From positions 1-15,118 of IMG/VR virus record IMGVR_UViG_2740892439_000020: 15,118 bases of DNA; one strand, 5' to 3'. This DNA comes from a virus. Taxonomy: Duplodnaviria > Heunggongvirae > Uroviricota > Caudoviricetes. This document shows positions 2,066 through 15,118 of the stretch, piece after piece. The position numbers and the translations under genes were made by a program. Positions within the stretch are counted from its first letter, which is position 1; the number at the start of each line of letters is the position of its first letter. Below the pieces are notes generated by a model that was given only the letters and a program-made list of their open reading frames with translations, was not told where the DNA came from and ran no database searches.

Positions 2066-2306
2066 TGGTTGCCCCCTGCTTTTCTGCCTTCAACACCATG
2101 TGCGAACCATCATCCAGCTCCCACGCGATCTCACCACCTTCAGCCATGACCAGTCGCCACACCAATTGAGCAGCCTCATTGGTAACATCACGACCTGGAT
2201 CATTGCCAACGCGCATACGCCCACCTTCAACATCGCGCATTTTTGCCAGCATGATAGTTTTTGATAGCGGTGAAAAACCAAGCTGTAGTCGTGCTGAATT
2301 ACTCAC
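2052..2306 (-). CDS. hypothetical small protein (84 aa)
   Basis: ORF 2052..2333 in track; start moved to GTG 2304-2306, which has a strong AAAGGAGG 6 nt upstream; overlaps the next gene start by 14 nt. Confidence 0.45.
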
Positions 2307-2469
2307 TGGTTGCCTCCTTTGCGCACATCGCATTCAGATATTTGTTTTTATTCACTGATGGAAAAGAATTTCTCTTAAGCAATTCCTCTCTCGATGGCAT
2401 TGGCTTTACGCGTTGGCGAATAATCATTTCTGCCGGAAGAATGCCGGGATTGTATGCAAGTCCTCTCAT
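2299..2469 (-). CDS. hypothetical small protein (56 aa)
   Basis: part of track ORF 2299..2502; ATG 2467-2469 (MRGLAYNP...) has GAGGAA 7 nt upstream; alternative start at 2484-2486 overlaps the upstream gene. Confidence 0.35.
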
Positions 2470-2479
2470 GGTAAATTCC

Positions 2480-2776
2480 TCAGTCATTACTGATAGCGCC
2501 ATAGCGTGAGCGGTAATTACGCAGGCGCGGGTCGATATATTCAGGGAAGTGGGTATATGTGGCTTTGCGGAATGGTCGGATTGATGTTTCGTTTATTCGG
2601 TCTTTTTCCTGTTTTTCTGCGAGTTGTATATCGCGTCGGTACTTCCGTTCTTCTTTTGTTTCTGGTGGCAGAGCAAGAAACGCGTCGAGATTATTCTTGA
2701 TATTTTCCAGCACCTCCGATATGGAATTGCCGGAACAGCGGCGCGGGTCGTCCGCACCATATAGAGGCGCTGGCAT
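2480..2776 (-). CDS. hypothetical phage protein (98 aa)
   Basis: ATG 2774-2776 with AGGAGA 6 nt upstream; starts 15 nt downstream of the exonuclease stop. Confidence 0.5.
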
Positions 2777-5912: not shown

Positions 5913-6212
5913 TCAAATAAGTGGTTTACTGCCTAATTTCATTTTCTGGCGACCAACACAAGTCACACCCATTTCACTGCGTGGCTTGCGGTAGTAAATA
6001 CGATTCTGTTTACGCTCGATTTCTTCTGCCTTCTTGCAGCGAAGGCTTCCGAGTGATGCTGCTTTGTCTGCTCTGACGCAACCAGAGAGCTTTAGCGCAA
6101 TTTTTCGCGCCAGTGCTTCATTACTGCGTCGCTCGGCAATAAGTTCTGCTCTGCGAGCTTTGTAGCGGCTTTTTGCCGTACCTTTGGATTCTTTCCAGAC
6201 AATGGTTACCAT
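5913..6212 (-). CDS. N: antitermination protein N (phi21-type arginine-rich motif)
   Basis: ATG 6210-6212 with AAAGGAG 6 nt upstream (track ORF starts at 6242 without an RBS); N-terminal ARM GTAKSRYKARRAELIAERR as I recall for phage 21 N; first gene downstream of pL/nutL. Confidence 0.7.
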   Translation of the reverse strand: MVTIVWKESKGTAKSRYKARRAELIAERRSNEALARKIALKLSGCVRADKAASLGSLRCKKAEEIERKQNRIYYRKPRSEMGVTCVGRQKMKLGSKPLI

Positions 6213-6322
6213 GATGGTCTCCTTTAAGTGGCTTTGGCGCATGACGCGTCGAGGTGCTTATCTTCTCGATCGCTGTCTTGCAGCTGCAATTCGCGCCATC
6301 CCCAAAACCACTCAAGTTCTGG

Positions 6323-6363
6323 TCTCAACGGTTAGGTTGAGAGTCCGTCGATGTTAAAGAGCC
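6323..6363 (-). promoter_or_regulatory. nutL: nutL site: boxA (GCTCTTTAACA) and boxB hairpin (UCUCAAC-CUAACC-GUUGAGA)
   Basis: boxA consensus-like 11-mer at 6352-6362 on minus strand, then a perfect 7-bp stem hairpin at 6323-6342, between pL and N. Confidence 0.65.
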
Positions 6364-6404
6364 TGCCAATCTGTTCCGTTTGGCTTCCAGCGTCCTGCTG
6401 ATGG

Positions 6405-6464
6405 CTTAAATTTAAGACTTCTTAATTTATTGGTCAAGTGCATTTTTGAAGAAAACTTAATTTT
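6405..6464 (-). promoter_or_regulatory. pL promoter with OL operators
   Basis: minus-strand -35 TTGACC (6432-6437), 17-nt spacer, -10 TAAATT (6409-6414); P22-type operator-like 18-mers with TTAAG/CTTAA half-sites at 6410-6427 and 6445-6462; 12-bp perfect palindrome CTTAAATTTAAG at 6405-6416. Confidence 0.5.
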
Positions 6465-6500
6465 ATGGGCGTGAATTTAGTTTGTCTTTGATTTTTAACG

Positions 6501-6528
6501 GGAAATAAAAAAGGGGCGAAAGCCCTTA
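6501..6528 (-). terminator. putative terminator immediately after the repressor gene
   Basis: minus-strand GGGC-UUUC-GCCC hairpin followed by CUUUUUUAUUU, starting at the repressor stop codon. Confidence 0.4.
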
Positions 6529-7176
6529 AGGAAGGTTTGCTAGCTTGGCATCAACGACAACGCCAATGATTTTACAGTTCCCATTGATTTCAATCATTGG
6601 GTATTGTGGATTGAGTGGTTTCAGGAATTTTCTACCGGCATCAATAACTAACTTTTTGAATGTCGCCTCGTTTTCTCCTTCAAGTTTGGCGACTACCAGC
6701 TTTCCATTACGTGGTTCGACTTCTGGGTCGACGAGAATAATCATCCCCTCAGGAATACTCAGTCCTGCCGGGGCAGTCATTGAATCGCCTTTAACGTCGA
6801 GCCAAAAAGAGTCTTCAGAACAATCTACCGTTGTGTCGTACCAGTTATCTATTGCACGCCTATGATATGGCTCTACAGCTTCCATCCAACATCCTGCGCT
6901 TACCCAACTAATTAGAGGATATGAACCTCTTGGATCATGCCTGCTGTGATAGGCAATGTTTGAAAGACTATCCTCTCCTTTCAACAGGTAATCAGGGGAG
7001 CACTGCAAAGCCTTGGCTAAGGCCAATAGGTTTTCGCCATTGGGCTCAGTTTCAGATCGCTCCCATTGGGAAATAGCAACATTAGACACGCCAACCATCT
7101 TGCCAAGGGCAGCCTGCCTAATCTTGAGTTCTTTTCTGCGAGCGCGAATACGCTCACCCATCAGTTGTGTATTCAT
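6526..7176 (-). CDS. c2: prophage repressor, C2/CI type (N-terminal HTH, C-terminal LexA-like S24 self-cleaving domain), P22 C2-like
   Basis: 216 aa; N-terminal domain (MNTQLMGERIRARR..QAALGKMVGVSNVAISQWERSE) matches my recollection of the P22 C2 DNA-binding domain; C-terminal Ser-Lys peptidase region (GDSMTAPAG...KLVVAKL...TFKKL); divergent from cro across an operator region. Confidence 0.85.
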   Translation of the reverse strand: MNTQLMGERIRARRKELKIRQAALGKMVGVSNVAISQWERSETEPNGENLLALAKALQCSPDYLLKGEDSLSNIAYHSRHDPRGSYPLISWVSAGCWMEAVEPYHRRAIDNWYDTTVDCSEDSFWLDVKGDSMTAPAGLSIPEGMIILVDPEVEPRNGKLVVAKLEGENEATFKKLVIDAGRKFLKPLNPQYPMIEINGNCKIIGVVVDAKLANLP

Positions 7177-7245
7177 AGTTAAGACATCTTAAATAAACTT
7201 GACTTAAGATTCCTTTGGTGGATAATTTAAGTGTTCTTTAATTTC
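7177..7245. promoter_or_regulatory. OR operator region with pR (and divergent pRM)
   Basis: three 18-bp P22-type operator-like sites of form ANTNAAG-N4-CTTNANT at 7177-7194, 7202-7219, 7225-7242; pR -35 TTGACT 7199-7204 and -10 GATAAT 7221-7226 on plus strand. Confidence 0.6.
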
Positions 7246-7256
7246 GGAGCGAGTCT

Positions 7257-7442
7257 ATGTACAAAAAAGATGTTATTGACCACTTCGGAACCCAGCGTGC
7301 TGTTGCTAAAGCACTAGGCATTAGCGATGCAGCAGTCTCTCAGTGGAAAGAAGTTATCCCAGAGAAAGACGCCTATCGATTGGAAATCGTTACAGCTGGC
7401 GCCCTGAAGTATCAAGAAAGTGCTTACCGCCAAGCGGCATAA
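7257..7442 (+). CDS. cro: Cro repressor (P22 Cro-like)
   Basis: 61 aa; GGAG RBS; HTH QRAVAKALGISDAAVSQW; sequence matches my recollection of P22 Cro; divergent from repressor. Confidence 0.85.
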   Translation: MYKKDVIDHFGTQRAVAKALGISDAAVSQWKEVIPEKDAYRLEIVTAGALKYQESAYRQAA

Positions 7443-7449
7443 GCAAATT

Positions 7450-7489
7450 GCTCTTTAACAGTTCTGGCCTTTCACCTCTAACCGGGTGA
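7450..7489 (+). promoter_or_regulatory. nutR: nutR site: boxA (GCTCTTTAACA) and boxB hairpin with CUAACCG loop
   Basis: boxA 7450-7460 identical to the nutL boxA; boxB stem UCACC/GGUGA at 7472-7489 shares the CUAACCG loop sequence with nutL boxB. Confidence 0.6.
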
Positions 7490-7498
7490 GCAAACATC

Positions 7499-7525
7499 AG
7501 CGGCAAATCCATTGGGTGTGCCGCT
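7499..7525 (+). other. 7-bp inverted repeat AGCGGCA-N13-TGCCGCT (candidate tR1-region structure, no U-tract)
   Basis: read from sequence between nutR and the cII-like gene; lambda tR1 is rho-dependent, which is consistent with absence of a T-run. Confidence 0.3.
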
Positions 7526-7557
7526 ATAACTCAATATCAATATAGGAAAATTAACAA

Positions 7558-7854
7558 ATGGCACAAGCAAGCTACAGCAAGCCAACACAGCGAGAAATTG
7601 ATCGCGCTGAAACTGATTTACTCATCAACCTGTCAACGCTTACCCAGCGCGGTCTGGCAAAGATGATTGGCTGTCATGAATCGAAGATAAGCAGAACGGA
7701 CTGGAGGTTTATTGCTTCGGTCTTGTGTGCTTTCGGAATGGCATCAGACATCAGTCCGATTAGCAGGGCTTTTAAGTATGCGCTTGATGAAATCACAAAG
7801 AAAAAATCCCCGGCCGCCACCGAGGATTTTAAGCAAATTGATATGCAATTCTGA
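7558..7854 (+). CDS. cII: CII-family transcriptional activator
   Basis: 98 aa; HTH region and C-terminal KKKSPAATEDFKQIDMQF resemble lambda CII (NKKRPAATERSEQIQMEF); follows cro and nutR. Confidence 0.75.
   Translation: MAQASYSKPTQREIDRAETDLLINLSTLTQRGLAKMIGCHESKISRTDWRFIASVLCAFGMASDISPISRAFKYALDEITKKKSPAATEDFKQIDMQF
7567..7580 (-). promoter_or_regulatory. candidate CII-binding site of pRE (TTGC-N6-TTGC direct repeat)
   Basis: minus strand reads TTGCTGTAGCTTGC inside the 5' end of the cII-like gene, the position and form of the lambda pRE activator site. Confidence 0.45.
7797..7826 (-). terminator. oop-type antisense terminator within the 3' end of the cII-like gene
   Basis: minus-strand hairpin (7807-7826) followed by AUUUUUUCUUUG; same location as the lambda oop RNA terminator. 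Confidence 0.45.
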
Positions 7855-7886
7855 GGGAATTACTGGATCAATCCACAGGAGTAATT

Positions 7887-8048
7887 ATGACAAAACGTCG
7901 TAAGAAATACCAGGAAAAAGAAGAGATTCGACACCCTGATTCACCTGAGGGATTAGTGGTAGCCGCAGCAAATAACAGGGCGTTCGCAGAGCGCCTTGTT
8001 GGTGTTTACAGACTAGCCAAAGCAGGAGTGAAACATGGGCGTCGTTAA
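7887..8048 (+). CDS. small basic protein (53 aa, [53 protein letters not shown])
   Basis: not in ORF track; ATG 7887-7889 with AGGAG 6 nt upstream; ends 14 nt inside the O-like gene. Confidence 0.45.
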   Translation: MTKRRKKYQEKEEIRHPDSPEGLVVAAANNRAFAERLVGVYRLAKAGVKHGRR

Positions 8049-8796
8049 GTTAGCTGATTACAGGCCTCAACTGGAGGTCGTGGAGCATCGCGTGGCAGAT
8101 ACCGAAGATGGTTTCATGCGCGTTGCTAACGAGATTACCGACAGTCTGCTGATGGCTGATTTAACCGTCCGGCAGTTGAAGGTGATGCTCGCTATCATGC
8201 GCAAGACATACGGATTCAATAAGCCGATGGATCGACTCACAAACACGCAGATAGCAGCCATGACAGGTATTCATCACACTCATGTTTGCGCTGCCAAGCG
8301 CCAGCTTATCGAGCGTAAATTCCTCATTGCTGATGGCGTGAAAATCGGAGTGAACAAGGTGGTTTCTCAGTGGATTAGCCAGGACAGCTTAACATTAGCT
8401 AAAACAGCTAATAAAACATTAGCCGAGTCGGCTAATGGGTATAAGCCAAGTCAGCTAAACACAAAAGACAATATACAAAAGACAATAAATACAAATACCC
8501 CCTTACCCCCTAACGGGGGCGGCGATTGGCAGGTTAAACCTGAACGTCGCAAGGCAGAACGAATCGACTACGAATCCTTCCTGAACGCCTACAACGCCGA
8601 AGTCGGTGACAGACTTCCACACGCTGTTGCGGTCAACGAGAAACGCAAACGCCGCCTGAAGAAAATCATCCCGCAACTGAAAACGCCAAACGTGGACGGT
8701 TTCAGAGCGTATGTCAGGGCGTTTGTGCATCAGCCAAGCCGTTTTACTTCGGAGACAACGACACTGGCTGGACGGCAGATTTTGATTACCTGCTGA
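8035..8796 (+). CDS. O: replication initiation protein, lambda O-like N-terminal domain (possibly 3'-frameshifted, see findings)
   Basis: 253 aa as read; AGGAG RBS; N-terminal region [37 protein letters not shown] resembles lambda O (DLTKRQFKVLLAILRKTYGWNKPMDRITDSQ); iterons inside the gene. Confidence 0.8.
8394..8500. repeat. candidate replication origin: ATTAGC/GCTAAT iteron-like palindromes followed by an AT-rich tract
   Basis: palindromes ATTAGCT-AAAAC-AGCTAAT (8394-8412) and ATTAGCCGA-G-TCGGCTAAT (8418-8436), a degenerate third copy near 8441-8458, then AT-rich 8459-8500; inside the O-like coding region as for ori-lambda. Confidence 0.5.
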
Positions 8797-8851
8797 GGGA
8801 AGATTCGTTAACGGGAGTACGGGAAGGGAAGTTTGCAGACAGGGGGATAGC

Positions 8852-10228
8852 ATGAGACAGGATATCGAAGCGAGCGTTATCGGTGGCCTGCTGATTGGTG
8901 GATTAACACCAACTGCCAGTGACGTTCTGGCAACGCTTGAGCCGGAAGCGTTTTCAATTCCGCTCTACCGGAAAGCCTTCGAGGTTATCCGCAAGCAGGC
9001 GAGAAACAGAAACCTAATCGACGCGCTGATGGTTGCCGAGGCGTGCGGAGAGGAGCATTTCACGTCAATCCTGATGACCAGCAAAAACTGCCCGAGCGCC
9101 GCAAACCTGAAGGGATATGCCGGAATGGTCGCGGATAACTATCACCGCCGTCTGGTGCTGGAAATCATGGATGAAATGCGTGAACCAATTCAGAGCGGAA
9201 CCATCGATACATCGAGTCAGGCGATGGACGAGCTTGTAAAGCGTCTTTCAGCCATCAGAAAGCCCCGTGACGAGGTTAAACCTGTACGGTTAGGGGAAAT
9301 CATCACTGACTACACTGACACGCTTGACAGGCGTCTGAGGAACGGAGAAGAGTCAGATACCCTGAAGACCGGAATCGAAGAACTTGATGTCATCACCGGA
9401 GGGATGAACGCGGAAGACCTGGTGATAATCGCTGCCCGTCCTGGCATGGGGAAAACCGAACTGGCGCTGAAGATTGCCGAAGGCGTTGCAAGCCGCGTTA
9501 TTCCTGGTTCTGACGTCCGGCGCGGAGTATTGATTTTCTCAATGGAAATGAGCGCATTGCAGATTGCAGAGCGAAGCATTGCCAACGCCGGGAGGATGTC
9601 GGTTAGCGTACTGCGAAATCCTGCATCGATGGATGACGAAGGCTGGGCGCGTGTTGCTAACGGCATGAGTCAGCTTGCAGATTTGGATGTATGGGTAGTC
9701 GATGCCTCGCGGTTATCGGTCGAAGAAATACGCTCAATCGCAGAACGACACAAACAGGAAAATCCAAACCTGTCACTCATCATGGCGGATTATCTTGGCC
9801 TGATTGAGAAGCCGAAAGCAGACCGCAACGACCTCGCAATTGCTCACATCTCCGGAAGCCTGAAGGCGATGGCGAAAGACCTGAAAACGCCTGTTATCTC
9901 CCTAAGTCAGCTTTCGCGCGATGTTGAGAAGCGACCAAACAAACGCCCGACAAACGCAGATTTGCGTGATTCAGGAAGCATTGAGCAGGACGCAGACTCA
10001 ATCATCATGCTCTATCGGGAAGCGGTATATGACGAGAACAGTAGCGCCGCGCCATTTGCTGAAATCATCGTGACGAAAAACCGTTTTGGCTCGCTTGGTA
10101 CGGTTTACCAGCGGTTCTGTAACGGACATTTTGTTGCATGTGACCAGGATGAAGCCAGACAGATTTGCACAGCATCAAATGCACCCGCTGCACGTGGCAG
10201 ACGATATGCACAAGGGGCTGACGTATGA
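8852..10228 (+). CDS. DnaB-family replicative DNA helicase (P22 gene 12-like, replaces lambda P)
   Basis: 458 aa; DnaB N-terminal domain; Walker [13 protein letters not shown]; Walker B and RecA-fold motifs ([18 protein letters not shown]); follows the O-like gene. Confidence 0.9.
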
Positions 10229-10253
10229 CCATCTACATCACTGAGCTAATAAC

Positions 10254-10286
10254 AGGCCTGCTGGTAATCGCAGGCCTTTTTATTTG
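10254..10286 (+). terminator. rho-independent terminator (tR2-like) after the helicase gene
   Basis: perfect 8-bp stem AGGCCTGC/GCAGGCCT with 8-nt loop followed by TTTTTATTT. Confidence 0.65.
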
Positions 10287-10300
10287 GGGGAGGGTAAATC

Positions 10301-10507
10301 GTGGCTGAGTTAATTTTCTCTGCATTGAGGATTCTTGGTGCTATGTGGATGGTGGCGACGTTCATTGTGGTTGCCAGCAGTTTTGTCCGGTTGGTAGGCG
10401 AAGGTAAAGACCTGGTGGGTGTGCTTTTCGGTAGCATTTTCCTGTGGGTGATTATCGGTGTTGCGCCTGTCGCTGTAGCAAAAATGGCGTGGCGTTTTGT
10501 GAGTTGA
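10301..10507 (+). CDS. small membrane protein with two predicted TM helices (68 aa)
   Basis: GTG start 10301-10303 with GGGGGAGGG 6 nt upstream; hydrophobic segments MWMVATFIVVASSFV and VLFGSIFLWVIIGVAPVAVA. Confidence 0.45.
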   Translation: MAELIFSALRILGAMWMVATFIVVASSFVRLVGEGKDLVGVLFGSIFLWVIIGVAPVAVAKMAWRFVS

Positions 10508-10524
10508 ACTGATGGTAAGTACCG

Positions 10525-10845
10525 ATGGACGAATCAAGAAAGCAGTTTGAAGAAAGCTGGTTGCGACGTGGGGGCGAATCTTCAGACCTTATCCGTTACC
10601 CTGAAAATCACCATGAAATTGGCAGCGGTAATATTGGTGGTCAATACGTGATGGTCGATGTTCAAGGCCACTGGCAAACGTGGCAGGCATCGCGATCAGC
10701 TATTGAAATAACCGCGCCAAAGTTTATCGACAGCAGAGAAGCATTAGCCAAAGGGTTTACTGTTGATTATTCCAATGGCTTCGGTGATGCAATGGATGCT
10801 TATGAGGAAAACATCCGCGCTGCTGGAGTCAAATTGAAGGAGTAA
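10525..10845 (+). CDS. hypothetical phage protein (106 aa)
   Basis: ORF with coding-like composition between helicase and ninB; weak RBS. Confidence 0.5.
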   Translation: MDESRKQFEESWLRRGGESSDLIRYPENHHEIGSGNIGGQYVMVDVQGHWQTWQASRSAIEITAPKFIDSREALAKGFTVDYSNGFGDAMDAYEENIRAAGVKLKE

Positions 10846-10847
10846 CG

Positions 10848-11258
10848 ATGAAGCAAACAATCTTCCTCCGAAGTAAGCAACAACAGCAAGCCGCAATAAA
10901 TGCCATCCTCGCAACACCACTCGATAAAGACAAGCCAGTCACCATCCGCATTACTGACTACAAGCGCAATCTTGACCAGAACGCAAAATTTCACGCGATG
11001 CTGGCGGATATCGCTCGTCAGGTTCAATGGTGCGGCAAATGGTTAAAACCGGAACAGTGGAAGGTTTTGTTGATTAGCGGTCATGCAGTGGCAACAAAAC
11101 AGGAAGCTGATGTTTTGCGCGGCCTTGAAGGCGAATTCGTCAACATTCGCGAAAGCAGCGCGCAGATGAGCGTGAAGCGTATGGCAAGTCTGATCGAGTA
11201 CACAACAGCCTGGGCTATTGGTCAGGGTGTCAGATTTACCGACAGGAGGTACGAATGA
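10848..11258 (+). CDS. ninB: NinB (Orf-family recombination mediator)
   Basis: 136 aa; AAGGAG RBS; similarity to lambda NinB/Orf ([25 protein letters not shown] vs lambda LDQNRKLWACLGDVSRQVEWHGRWL). Confidence 0.8.
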
Positions 11259-11431
11259 GACGACAGCGACGAAGTATCACCGACATAATCTGCGAAAACT
11301 GCAAATACCTTCCAACGAAACGCTCCAGAAATAAACGCAAGCCAATCCCAAAAGAATCTGACGTAAAAACCTTCAATTACACAGCTCACCTGTGGGATAT
11401 CCGGTGGCTAAGATATCGTGCGAGGAAATGA
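11255..11431 (+). CDS. ninE: NinE
   Basis: 58-aa ORF not in track; ATGA overlap with ninB stop; AGGAGG RBS; [30 protein letters not shown] matches my recollection of lambda NinE. Confidence 0.75.
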
Positions 11432-11787
11432 CAATGGATTATTCACAGTTAAGTGATTTTGAAATTAACAGAATGGTAGGAGACATAATTTTTAAAGGCC
11501 TTTGGGCAAGTAAACCGGAAACATCAGGGAATAACACCAACAAATGGTATTACGGAAATGCTGATACAACTTTTGAGCCATTAAACCCTTTACCTGACTA
11601 CTGCAATGATCCTAGCGCCTCATGGCCGATTATTGAGAAATACAGGATTAGCATTATCAATCTCGATGAAGACGAGTGGGGTGCACGTGGTGTGGCCGAC
11701 TGTAAATCTAAGCGAGCTATACATGAAAATTCCCTCCGCGCCGCCATGATTGTCTTTCTCATGATGCAGGACGCCAATAATGCTTAG
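11428..11787 (+). CDS. NinX-like hypothetical protein (about 118 aa)
   Basis: ATG 11428 overlaps the ninE stop as ATGA (alternative ATG 11434 with GAGGAAA RBS); track ORF starts further upstream at GTG 11392 inside ninE; position between ninE and ninF as for P22 ninX. Confidence 0.55.
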
Positions 11788-14132: not shown

Positions 14133-14167
14133 AGCCTGAGTTAATAGCTCGGGGCTTTTTGCGTTTT
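14133..14167 (+). terminator. rho-independent terminator about 30-60 nt downstream of the pR' start (tR'-like, would give a short 6S-like RNA)
   Basis: 8-bp stem with one bulge (AGCCUGAG/CUCGGGGCU), 7-nt loop, then UUUUUGCGUUUU. Confidence 0.5.
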
Positions 14168-14342: not shown

Positions 14343-14385
14343 TTATTCCTAATTAAATAGAGCAAATCCCTTATTGGGCTAAGAC

Positions 14386-14709
14386 ATGAAGATGCCAGAA
14401 AAACATGACCTGTTAGCCGCCATTCTCGCGGCAAAGGAACAAGGCATCGGGGCAATCCTTGCGTTTGCAATGGCGTACCTTCGCGGCAGATATAATGGCG
14501 GTGCGTTTACAAAAACAGTAATCGACGCAACGATGTGCGCCATTATCGCCTGGTTCATTCGTGACCTTCTCGACTTCGCCGGACTAAGTAGCAATCTCGC
14601 TTATATAACGAGCGTGTTCATCGGCTACATCGGTACTGACTCGATTGGTTCGCTTATCAAACGCTTCGCTGCTAAAAAAGCCGGAATAGAAGATGGTGGA
14701 AATCAATAA
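14386..14709 (+). CDS. S: holin S (lambda S107/S105 dual-start class I holin)
   Basis: 107 aa; Met1-Lys2-Met3 dual-start motif; three TM segments; small CCC-TTATT-GGG hairpin (14368-14378) just upstream as for the lambda sdi structure. Confidence 0.9.
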
Positions 14710-15118
14710 TCAACGTAAGGCGTTCCTCGATATGCTGGCGTGGTCAGAGGGAACTGATAACGGACGGCAGAAAACCAGAAATCATGGTTATGACGTCATT
14801 GTTGGCGGAGAGCTATTCACTGATTACTCCGATCACCCTCGCAAACTTGTCACGCTAAACCCCAAACTCAAATCAACAGCCGCCGGACGCTACCAGCTTC
14901 TTTCCCGTTGGTGGGATGCCTACCGTAAGCAGCTTGGCCTGAAAGACTTCTCTCCGAAAAGCCAGGACGCTGTGGCACTGCAACAGATTAAAGAGCGTGG
15001 CGCTTTACCGATGATTGACCACGGTGATATTCGTCAGGCTATCGACCGTTGCAGCAATATCTGGCTTCACTGCCGGGAGCTGGTTATGGTCAGTTCGAGC
15101 ATAAGGCTGACAGCCTGA
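14693..15118 (+). CDS. R: endolysin R (lytic transglycosylase), C-terminus altered by an apparent 1-bp deletion frameshift
   Basis: overlaps S by 17 nt as in lambda; residues 1-123 match lambda R ([35 protein letters not shown]...); final 18 codons are out of frame relative to lambda R and end at the last triplet of the window. Confidence 0.85.

Follow-up and report, generated by a model that had tools for sequence, protein, structure and literature searches.

The window, that is, the whole stretch of 15,118 nucleotides of viral DNA analysed here, carries on its + strand an O-like replication initiator ORF that, as read, extends from position 8035 to 8796 and codes for 253 aa. It is followed on the same strand by a gene for a DnaB-family replicative helicase of 458 aa (8852 to 10228). 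The start of the O-like gene is overlapped by a small upstream ORF of 53 aa similar to HK97 gp53 (7887 to 8048, + strand). A 162-nt CDS, also of 53 aa, occupies the same position in the relatives and is annotated as 'similar to HK97 Gp53' in HK446 and HK544. The O-like product matched the Pfam family PF04492 (Phage_rep_O) at residues 19-113 with E = 4.7e-33 and 114 bits, against a cut-off of 28.7, and also TIGR01610, with 97.7 bits against a cut-off of 45.5. The helicase matched TIGR00665 (DnaB, E = 1e-99) and TIGR03600 (phage_DnaB, E = 7.9e-93), both below the curated cut-offs.

A repeat search revealed two features inside the O-like gene: four iteron-like direct repeats of about 18 nt on the + strand (8374 to 8458; ATTAGCyrrrrCrGCTAA, with a spacing of 20-24 nt) and, 3' of them, an A/T-rich 14-nt tandem repeat (8461-8488). 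From their sequence, the iterons and the A/T-rich repeat are probably the replication origin, and the same arrangement, with iterons inside the initiator gene, is found in lambda O and P22 gene 18 (PMC8022706). The O-like gene is a lambdoid replication initiator of the HK97 gp54 / P22 gp18 type, which is already well known. Such an initiator would combine an N-terminal origin-binding domain with a helical C-terminal domain, and its gene would contain the iterons and be translationally coupled to that of the phage DnaB-type helicase, as in the case of P22 gene 12. The window shares with P22 genes 18 and 12 the gene order, the DnaB-type helicase and the iterons within the initiator gene. The P22 gene is, however, a different allele, with a C-terminal domain about 60% identical and with iterons that differ according to the literature, whereas the gene of the window is of the HK97 type. 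With lambda O it shares the Phage_rep_O/TIGR01610 N-terminal domain and an origin located within the gene and followed by an A/T-rich stretch. Lambda differs in that it uses the loader P, which captures the host DnaB, whereas here the downstream gene itself codes for a DnaB-family helicase.

The O-like frame, as read, ends at the stop codon 8794-8796, and 55 nt (8797-8851) separate this stop from the helicase ATG at 8852. A second frame, closed upstream by a TGA at 8607-8609, runs without a stop from 8610 until the TGA at 8853-8855, and this last codon overlaps the helicase start as ATGA. On both points the sequence agrees with an earlier note on this DNA, made from the letters alone. The ATGA overlap is absent for the zero frame and exists for the -1 frame only. 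From this arrangement, the same note had proposed that a mutation or a sequencing error has shifted the frame of the gene, with a true form of 273 aa coupled to the helicase through ATGA, or that the true C-terminus is made by a shift, and it had placed the lesion in a run of four Ts at 8742-8745. An antisense ORF of 116 aa also spans this region on the minus strand (8503-8853) and is probably a by-product of the coding strand.

The megablast search with 8035-8855 returned matches in 183 phage and 717 E. coli records. The best full-length matches, at 98-99% identity, cover 822 nt where the window has 821, and the top 40 E. coli matches likewise span 822 nt. An uninterrupted gene of 822 nt and 273 aa is present in HK446, phage 2851, HK544, 80 IMG/VR loci, the top 40 E. 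coli prophage hits and the closest relative of the window (L212). In HK446, phage 2851, HK544 and the E. coli prophages the product is named 'replication initiation O-like', 'similar to HK97 Gp54' or 'replication protein', and its stop codon overlaps the helicase start. Among the 83 loci that were fetched, 82 have a 273-aa ORF ending in ATGA, the exception being phi330, and the last 45 aa are identical in 80. The refutation envisaged in the earlier note, homologues ending like the 253-aa ORF, did not materialize: the homologues carry the tail of the alternative frame. The frameshift proposed for the gene is therefore borne out by its intact form in the relatives.

The closest relative is 98.5% identical to the window over 5991-11436 (5.4 kb), with just two gaps, at 6525 and 8733. 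It has an identical helicase protein and an intact initiator gene. The comparison with HK97 gp54 and HK446 gp44 (273 aa; the helicase is gp55 in HK97) gave a similar picture, with 98-99% nucleotide identity over the whole gene, the 162-nt upstream ORF, the iteron block, the C-terminal sequence and the ATGA overlap with a 458-aa helicase in common. The difference is that the window lacks one G at 8733 and has a 253-aa product with a nonsense tail of 20 residues. In phi330 (L002; phage vB_EcoS_phi330, PV189401.1, positions 1501-2321) the gene also has 821 nt and is split into CDSs of 549 and 165 nt; there the frameshift lies elsewhere in the gene, in a proline/glycine-rich linker.

The alignments locate the break precisely. 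A lone gap at 8733 was observed against HK446, phage 2851, phi330, HK544, mEp235 and E. coli prophages, as well as against loci L084, L086, L087, L001, L003, L208, L212, L213 and L215, and at this site the reading frame is continuous in every relative checked. The single gap falls in a GG doublet, with CATCAGGCCAAGCCGTTTTAC in the relatives aligned to CATCAG-CCAAGCCGTTTTAC in the window. What the window lacks is thus a G next to G8733 (8733 to 8734, + strand; CATCAGGCCAAG in the relatives, CATCAGCCAAG in the window), 9 nt 5' of the T run. The run of four Ts is indeed present at 8742-8745 (+ strand), but it is not the lesion, since all 83 fetched loci have GG and then TTTT at these positions, and the gain or loss of a T suggested before has to be abandoned. 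A repair in the T run gives a protein of the right length with a wrong junction, PSRF instead of AKPF, so that the sequence ...HQPSRFYFGD... derived in this way is not a real one. When one G is added to the window, the result is a 273-aa protein whose tail is identical to that of the relatives. Residues 1-233 of the 253-aa ORF are thus authentic and its last 20 are out of frame, while the segment from 8733 to 8855 (+ strand) codes in the -1 frame for the authentic C-terminal 40 residues. Through the break, these 40 conserved residues give way to 20 meaningless ones, and the gene loses its link to the start of the helicase, to which it is normally joined translationally by the ATGA overlap.

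The tail had been described as protein-like, and the comparisons go far beyond chance in this respect, as it is nearly identical to the C-terminus of hundreds of homologues. Using the last 108 residues of the repaired protein as a query, we found homologues whose identity went as low as about 45% in the protein database and 31-36% in phage genomes. P22 gp18 is 60% identical at residues 3-105 of this query, an alignment that covers most of the tail. The stretch lost through the frameshift, with a motif ending in ..REG, is the best-conserved part of the C-terminal domain and is kept in homologues down to about 45% identity. This motif as a complete C-terminus is absent from the zero frame and present in the -1 frame only. 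Accordingly, the ORF as read matches PHROG 345 only at profile positions 1-262 of 297, and the repaired C-terminus matches positions 189-295.

The nucleotide substitutions point in the same direction, as 15 of the 19 variable columns of the tail are, in its frame, third codon positions. The window's own tail departs from the consensus four times, always at a third position, and in the three cases that were checked by codon the residue is unchanged. In the structure prediction, the tail belongs to a confidently predicted helical domain, and the search among solved structures returned no sequence or fold match for the C-terminal domain. The patterns of conservation and substitution indicate that the tail frame encodes the real, selected C-terminus of the O-like protein. 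We also considered the tail as an independent small ORF, as it is annotated in phi330, and rejected this candidate because the tail frame contains no ATG, GTG or TTG. No + strand ORF of at least 30 aa ends at 8855.

A selected tail in a second frame could in principle be reached by a functional two-frame layout, either through a -1 ribosomal slip, for instance of tRNA-Phe on T_TTT at 8742-8745, or with the 253-aa form as a deliberate second product. A -1 shift anywhere in 8610-8796 would enter the tail frame. In addition, with a T in front of TTT (8743-8745), a codon of the zero frame, one tRNA would be able to pair again in the -1 frame, and the slipped protein would depart from the wild type by only three residues (PSR for AKP). 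Nevertheless, an X_XXY_YYZ heptamer was found nowhere in the O frame. The frame offers single-codon re-pairing sites only; the sole candidate near the lesion is a single-tRNA slip on T_TTT, and its P-site codon CGT is unable to re-pair. The downstream RNA (8746-8850, 105 nt) is unremarkable in its folding, at -22.6 kcal/mol against a mean of -19.9 for shuffled sequences (z = -1.10), and 27 of 200 such sequences reach an equal or lower energy. Moreover, this downstream sequence is the same in relatives with a continuous frame. Of the matching records, which number over 800, none shows the two-frame layout, and the deleted version is without an exact match in three contig collections. Slippage during transcription, for its part, would need a run longer than four Ts. 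Altogether, the proposal that the C-terminus arises through a translational shift finds neither a heptamer, nor a notable downstream fold, nor a relative with the same layout in its favour, and we reject a functional layout of this kind as extremely improbable.

The deletion is private to the window. In the phage and E. coli genome collections, none of the records extends over as much as 80% of the window. A 32-mer spanning it has no exact match among IMG/VR viral contigs, GTDB representative genomes and JGI metagenome contigs. A 71-nt query over the site hit 703 E. coli and 111 phage records, none of them at 99% identity or more, and the matches listed for this query span 72 nt, with 71 of 72 positions matching and one gap. 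The 253-aa product has no exact counterpart in a collection of about 15 billion proteins. Two other products of the window, the frameshifted endolysin and the altered DUF2737 protein described below, are likewise missing from this set, whereas an intact neighbouring ORF of 106 aa is present in it exactly. The 458-aa helicase of the window is found as an exact protein on 149 contigs.

To place the missing G in context, we compared the whole window with its relatives and counted isolated single-base indels within otherwise well-matched sequence. The window has seven private 1-nt indels. All of them are deletions, each shortening a run of G or C of 2-4 bases, and one of the seven affected runs is a run of five in some relatives. 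Three deletions change the product of a gene. At 2324, CC became C (+ strand), which alters the last seven codons of the DUF2737 gene (ORF 2299-2502, minus strand); the protein ends in ...NAMWRKGGKQ or ...NAMWRSGKK in the relatives and differs in the window. At 8733, GG became G, which frameshifts the O-like gene. At 15062, GGG became GG, which frameshifts the endolysin gene (ORF 14693-15118; ATATCTGGGCTTCA in the relatives, ATATCTGGCTTCA in the window), and its product is reduced from 158 aa in the relatives to 141 aa. At this last site, the normal form is carried by at least 120 viral contigs and the deleted form by not a single one.

The remaining deletions are non-coding. The change from CCCC to CCC at 6525 lies in an arm of the hairpin GGGGCGAAAGCCCC, just beyond the repressor stop, and the change at 14134 is from CCC to CC. 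At 14370 (CCCC to CCC) and 14379 (GGGG to GGG) the deletions affect the first and the second arm, respectively, of one hairpin, CCCCTTATTGGGG, which lies immediately 5' of the holin start (14386). When four relatives were compared with one another in this manner, a single isolated 1-nt indel was detected. The window contains 59 A/T runs of at least five bases, and all of them are unaffected. G/C runs account for 18% of the positions in the window and for 39% of its homopolymer positions, and, as computed from the run counts, the probability that seven of seven random hits fall in G/C runs is about 7e-6, or about 1.4e-3 if the hits are limited to homopolymer positions.

We also noted the position of the window's edges. 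The window starts at the stop codon (1-3) of a minus-strand 63-aa AlpA/Xis-like ORF, and it ends (15116-15118) at the stop of the frameshifted endolysin ORF, which is the last codon of the window because the deletion at 15062 shifts the frame. The fact that both edges are located at ORF stops suggests that its limits were probably set by gene calling on the uncorrected sequence.

The seven deletions could be real mutations, in which case the window would derive from a defective or decaying prophage or from a laboratory mutant, with an initiator that lacks its last 40 residues and its coupling to the helicase, and with the endolysin and DUF2737 genes truly frameshifted. The window sequence as given is unambiguous. 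Other deposited records hold frameshifted copies of the gene, phi330 among them, although in a different place. Prophages often decay, and a decaying prophage could carry several frameshifts; within one 15-kb stretch, three essential or conserved genes are affected. The character of the changes speaks against this explanation, as each of the seven private indels removes a base from a G/C run and the A/T runs are spared. Decay is not expected to be so base-specific, nor to trim both arms of a hairpin (14370 and 14379) by one base each. Furthermore, there are no insertions, nonsense mutations or IS elements in the window, and every other ORF has the same length as its homologue. Because the tail substitutions of the window are all at third positions of the tail frame, there has been no drift since the supposed inactivation. 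Finally, none of the deletions that were tested is shared with any other sequence. We therefore regard a real pseudogene as unlikely, and as the second choice after an artefact.

An alternative in which the phage truly lacks the G and yet is viable would need either an unprogrammed -1 slip of tRNA-Phe on CGU_UUU_A (8740-8746) or a truncated initiator that works with an uncoupled helicase, and it appears hardly credible.

We infer that the seven-site pattern arose from sequencing and not from mutation. An artefact is favoured because the pattern is base-specific, restricted to deletions and independent of run length, and because both arms of one hairpin are shortened. A classic cause of such dropouts is the G/C compression of older gel-based sequencing, and either this or the undercalling of short G/C homopolymers would have dropped single bases at the seven sites. 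Counting against an artefact, two of the affected sites are runs of two bases, which are not classic homopolymer-error sites on any modern platform. The lesion is private to this record and the same type of error recurs in it beyond natural variation, so that the case resembles the coding sequences known to be interrupted by sequencing errors, in which a private single-base indel of a recurrent error type hits a conserved gene and is absent from close relatives. In one deposited genome, a significant share of the interrupted coding sequences were sequencing errors, according to a passage of PMC1852416. On balance, the missing G is most probably a systematic sequencing artefact. Since it is one of seven G/C-run dropouts, the real phage most likely encodes the normal 273-aa protein.

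These results matter for annotation quality. The 253-aa O-like protein, the 141-aa endolysin and the altered C-terminus of the DUF2737 protein should not be propagated as real variants, and about seven positions in G/C runs have to be corrected in the record. The gene is a known one, and its break, most likely an error of sequencing, is not new biology. A real deletion would mark merely a defective prophage, which is common.

The comparison of the relatives also bears on the organization of the initiator itself. On the contigs with the identical 458-aa helicase, the upstream initiator is always intact and ends in ATGA, in a form of either 273 or 295 aa. In loci L208 to L217 (about 9117-10004 compared with 9183-10004), the two forms of the initiator differ in their N-terminal/origin part. 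The C-terminal residues, about 110 in number, are essentially the same in both, which amounts to a shuffling of modules inside the initiator gene. In the lambda O-P system, a two-domain logic applies, in which the C-terminal part of O recruits the helicase machinery. Given this precedent, and the constant pairing with the same helicase over two N-terminal modules, the C-terminal domain of the O-like protein would be the part that engages the helicase. The presence of the same C-terminal segment of about 110 residues on two N-terminal/origin modules, whenever the identical helicase follows, fits a C-terminal domain that is matched to its helicase.
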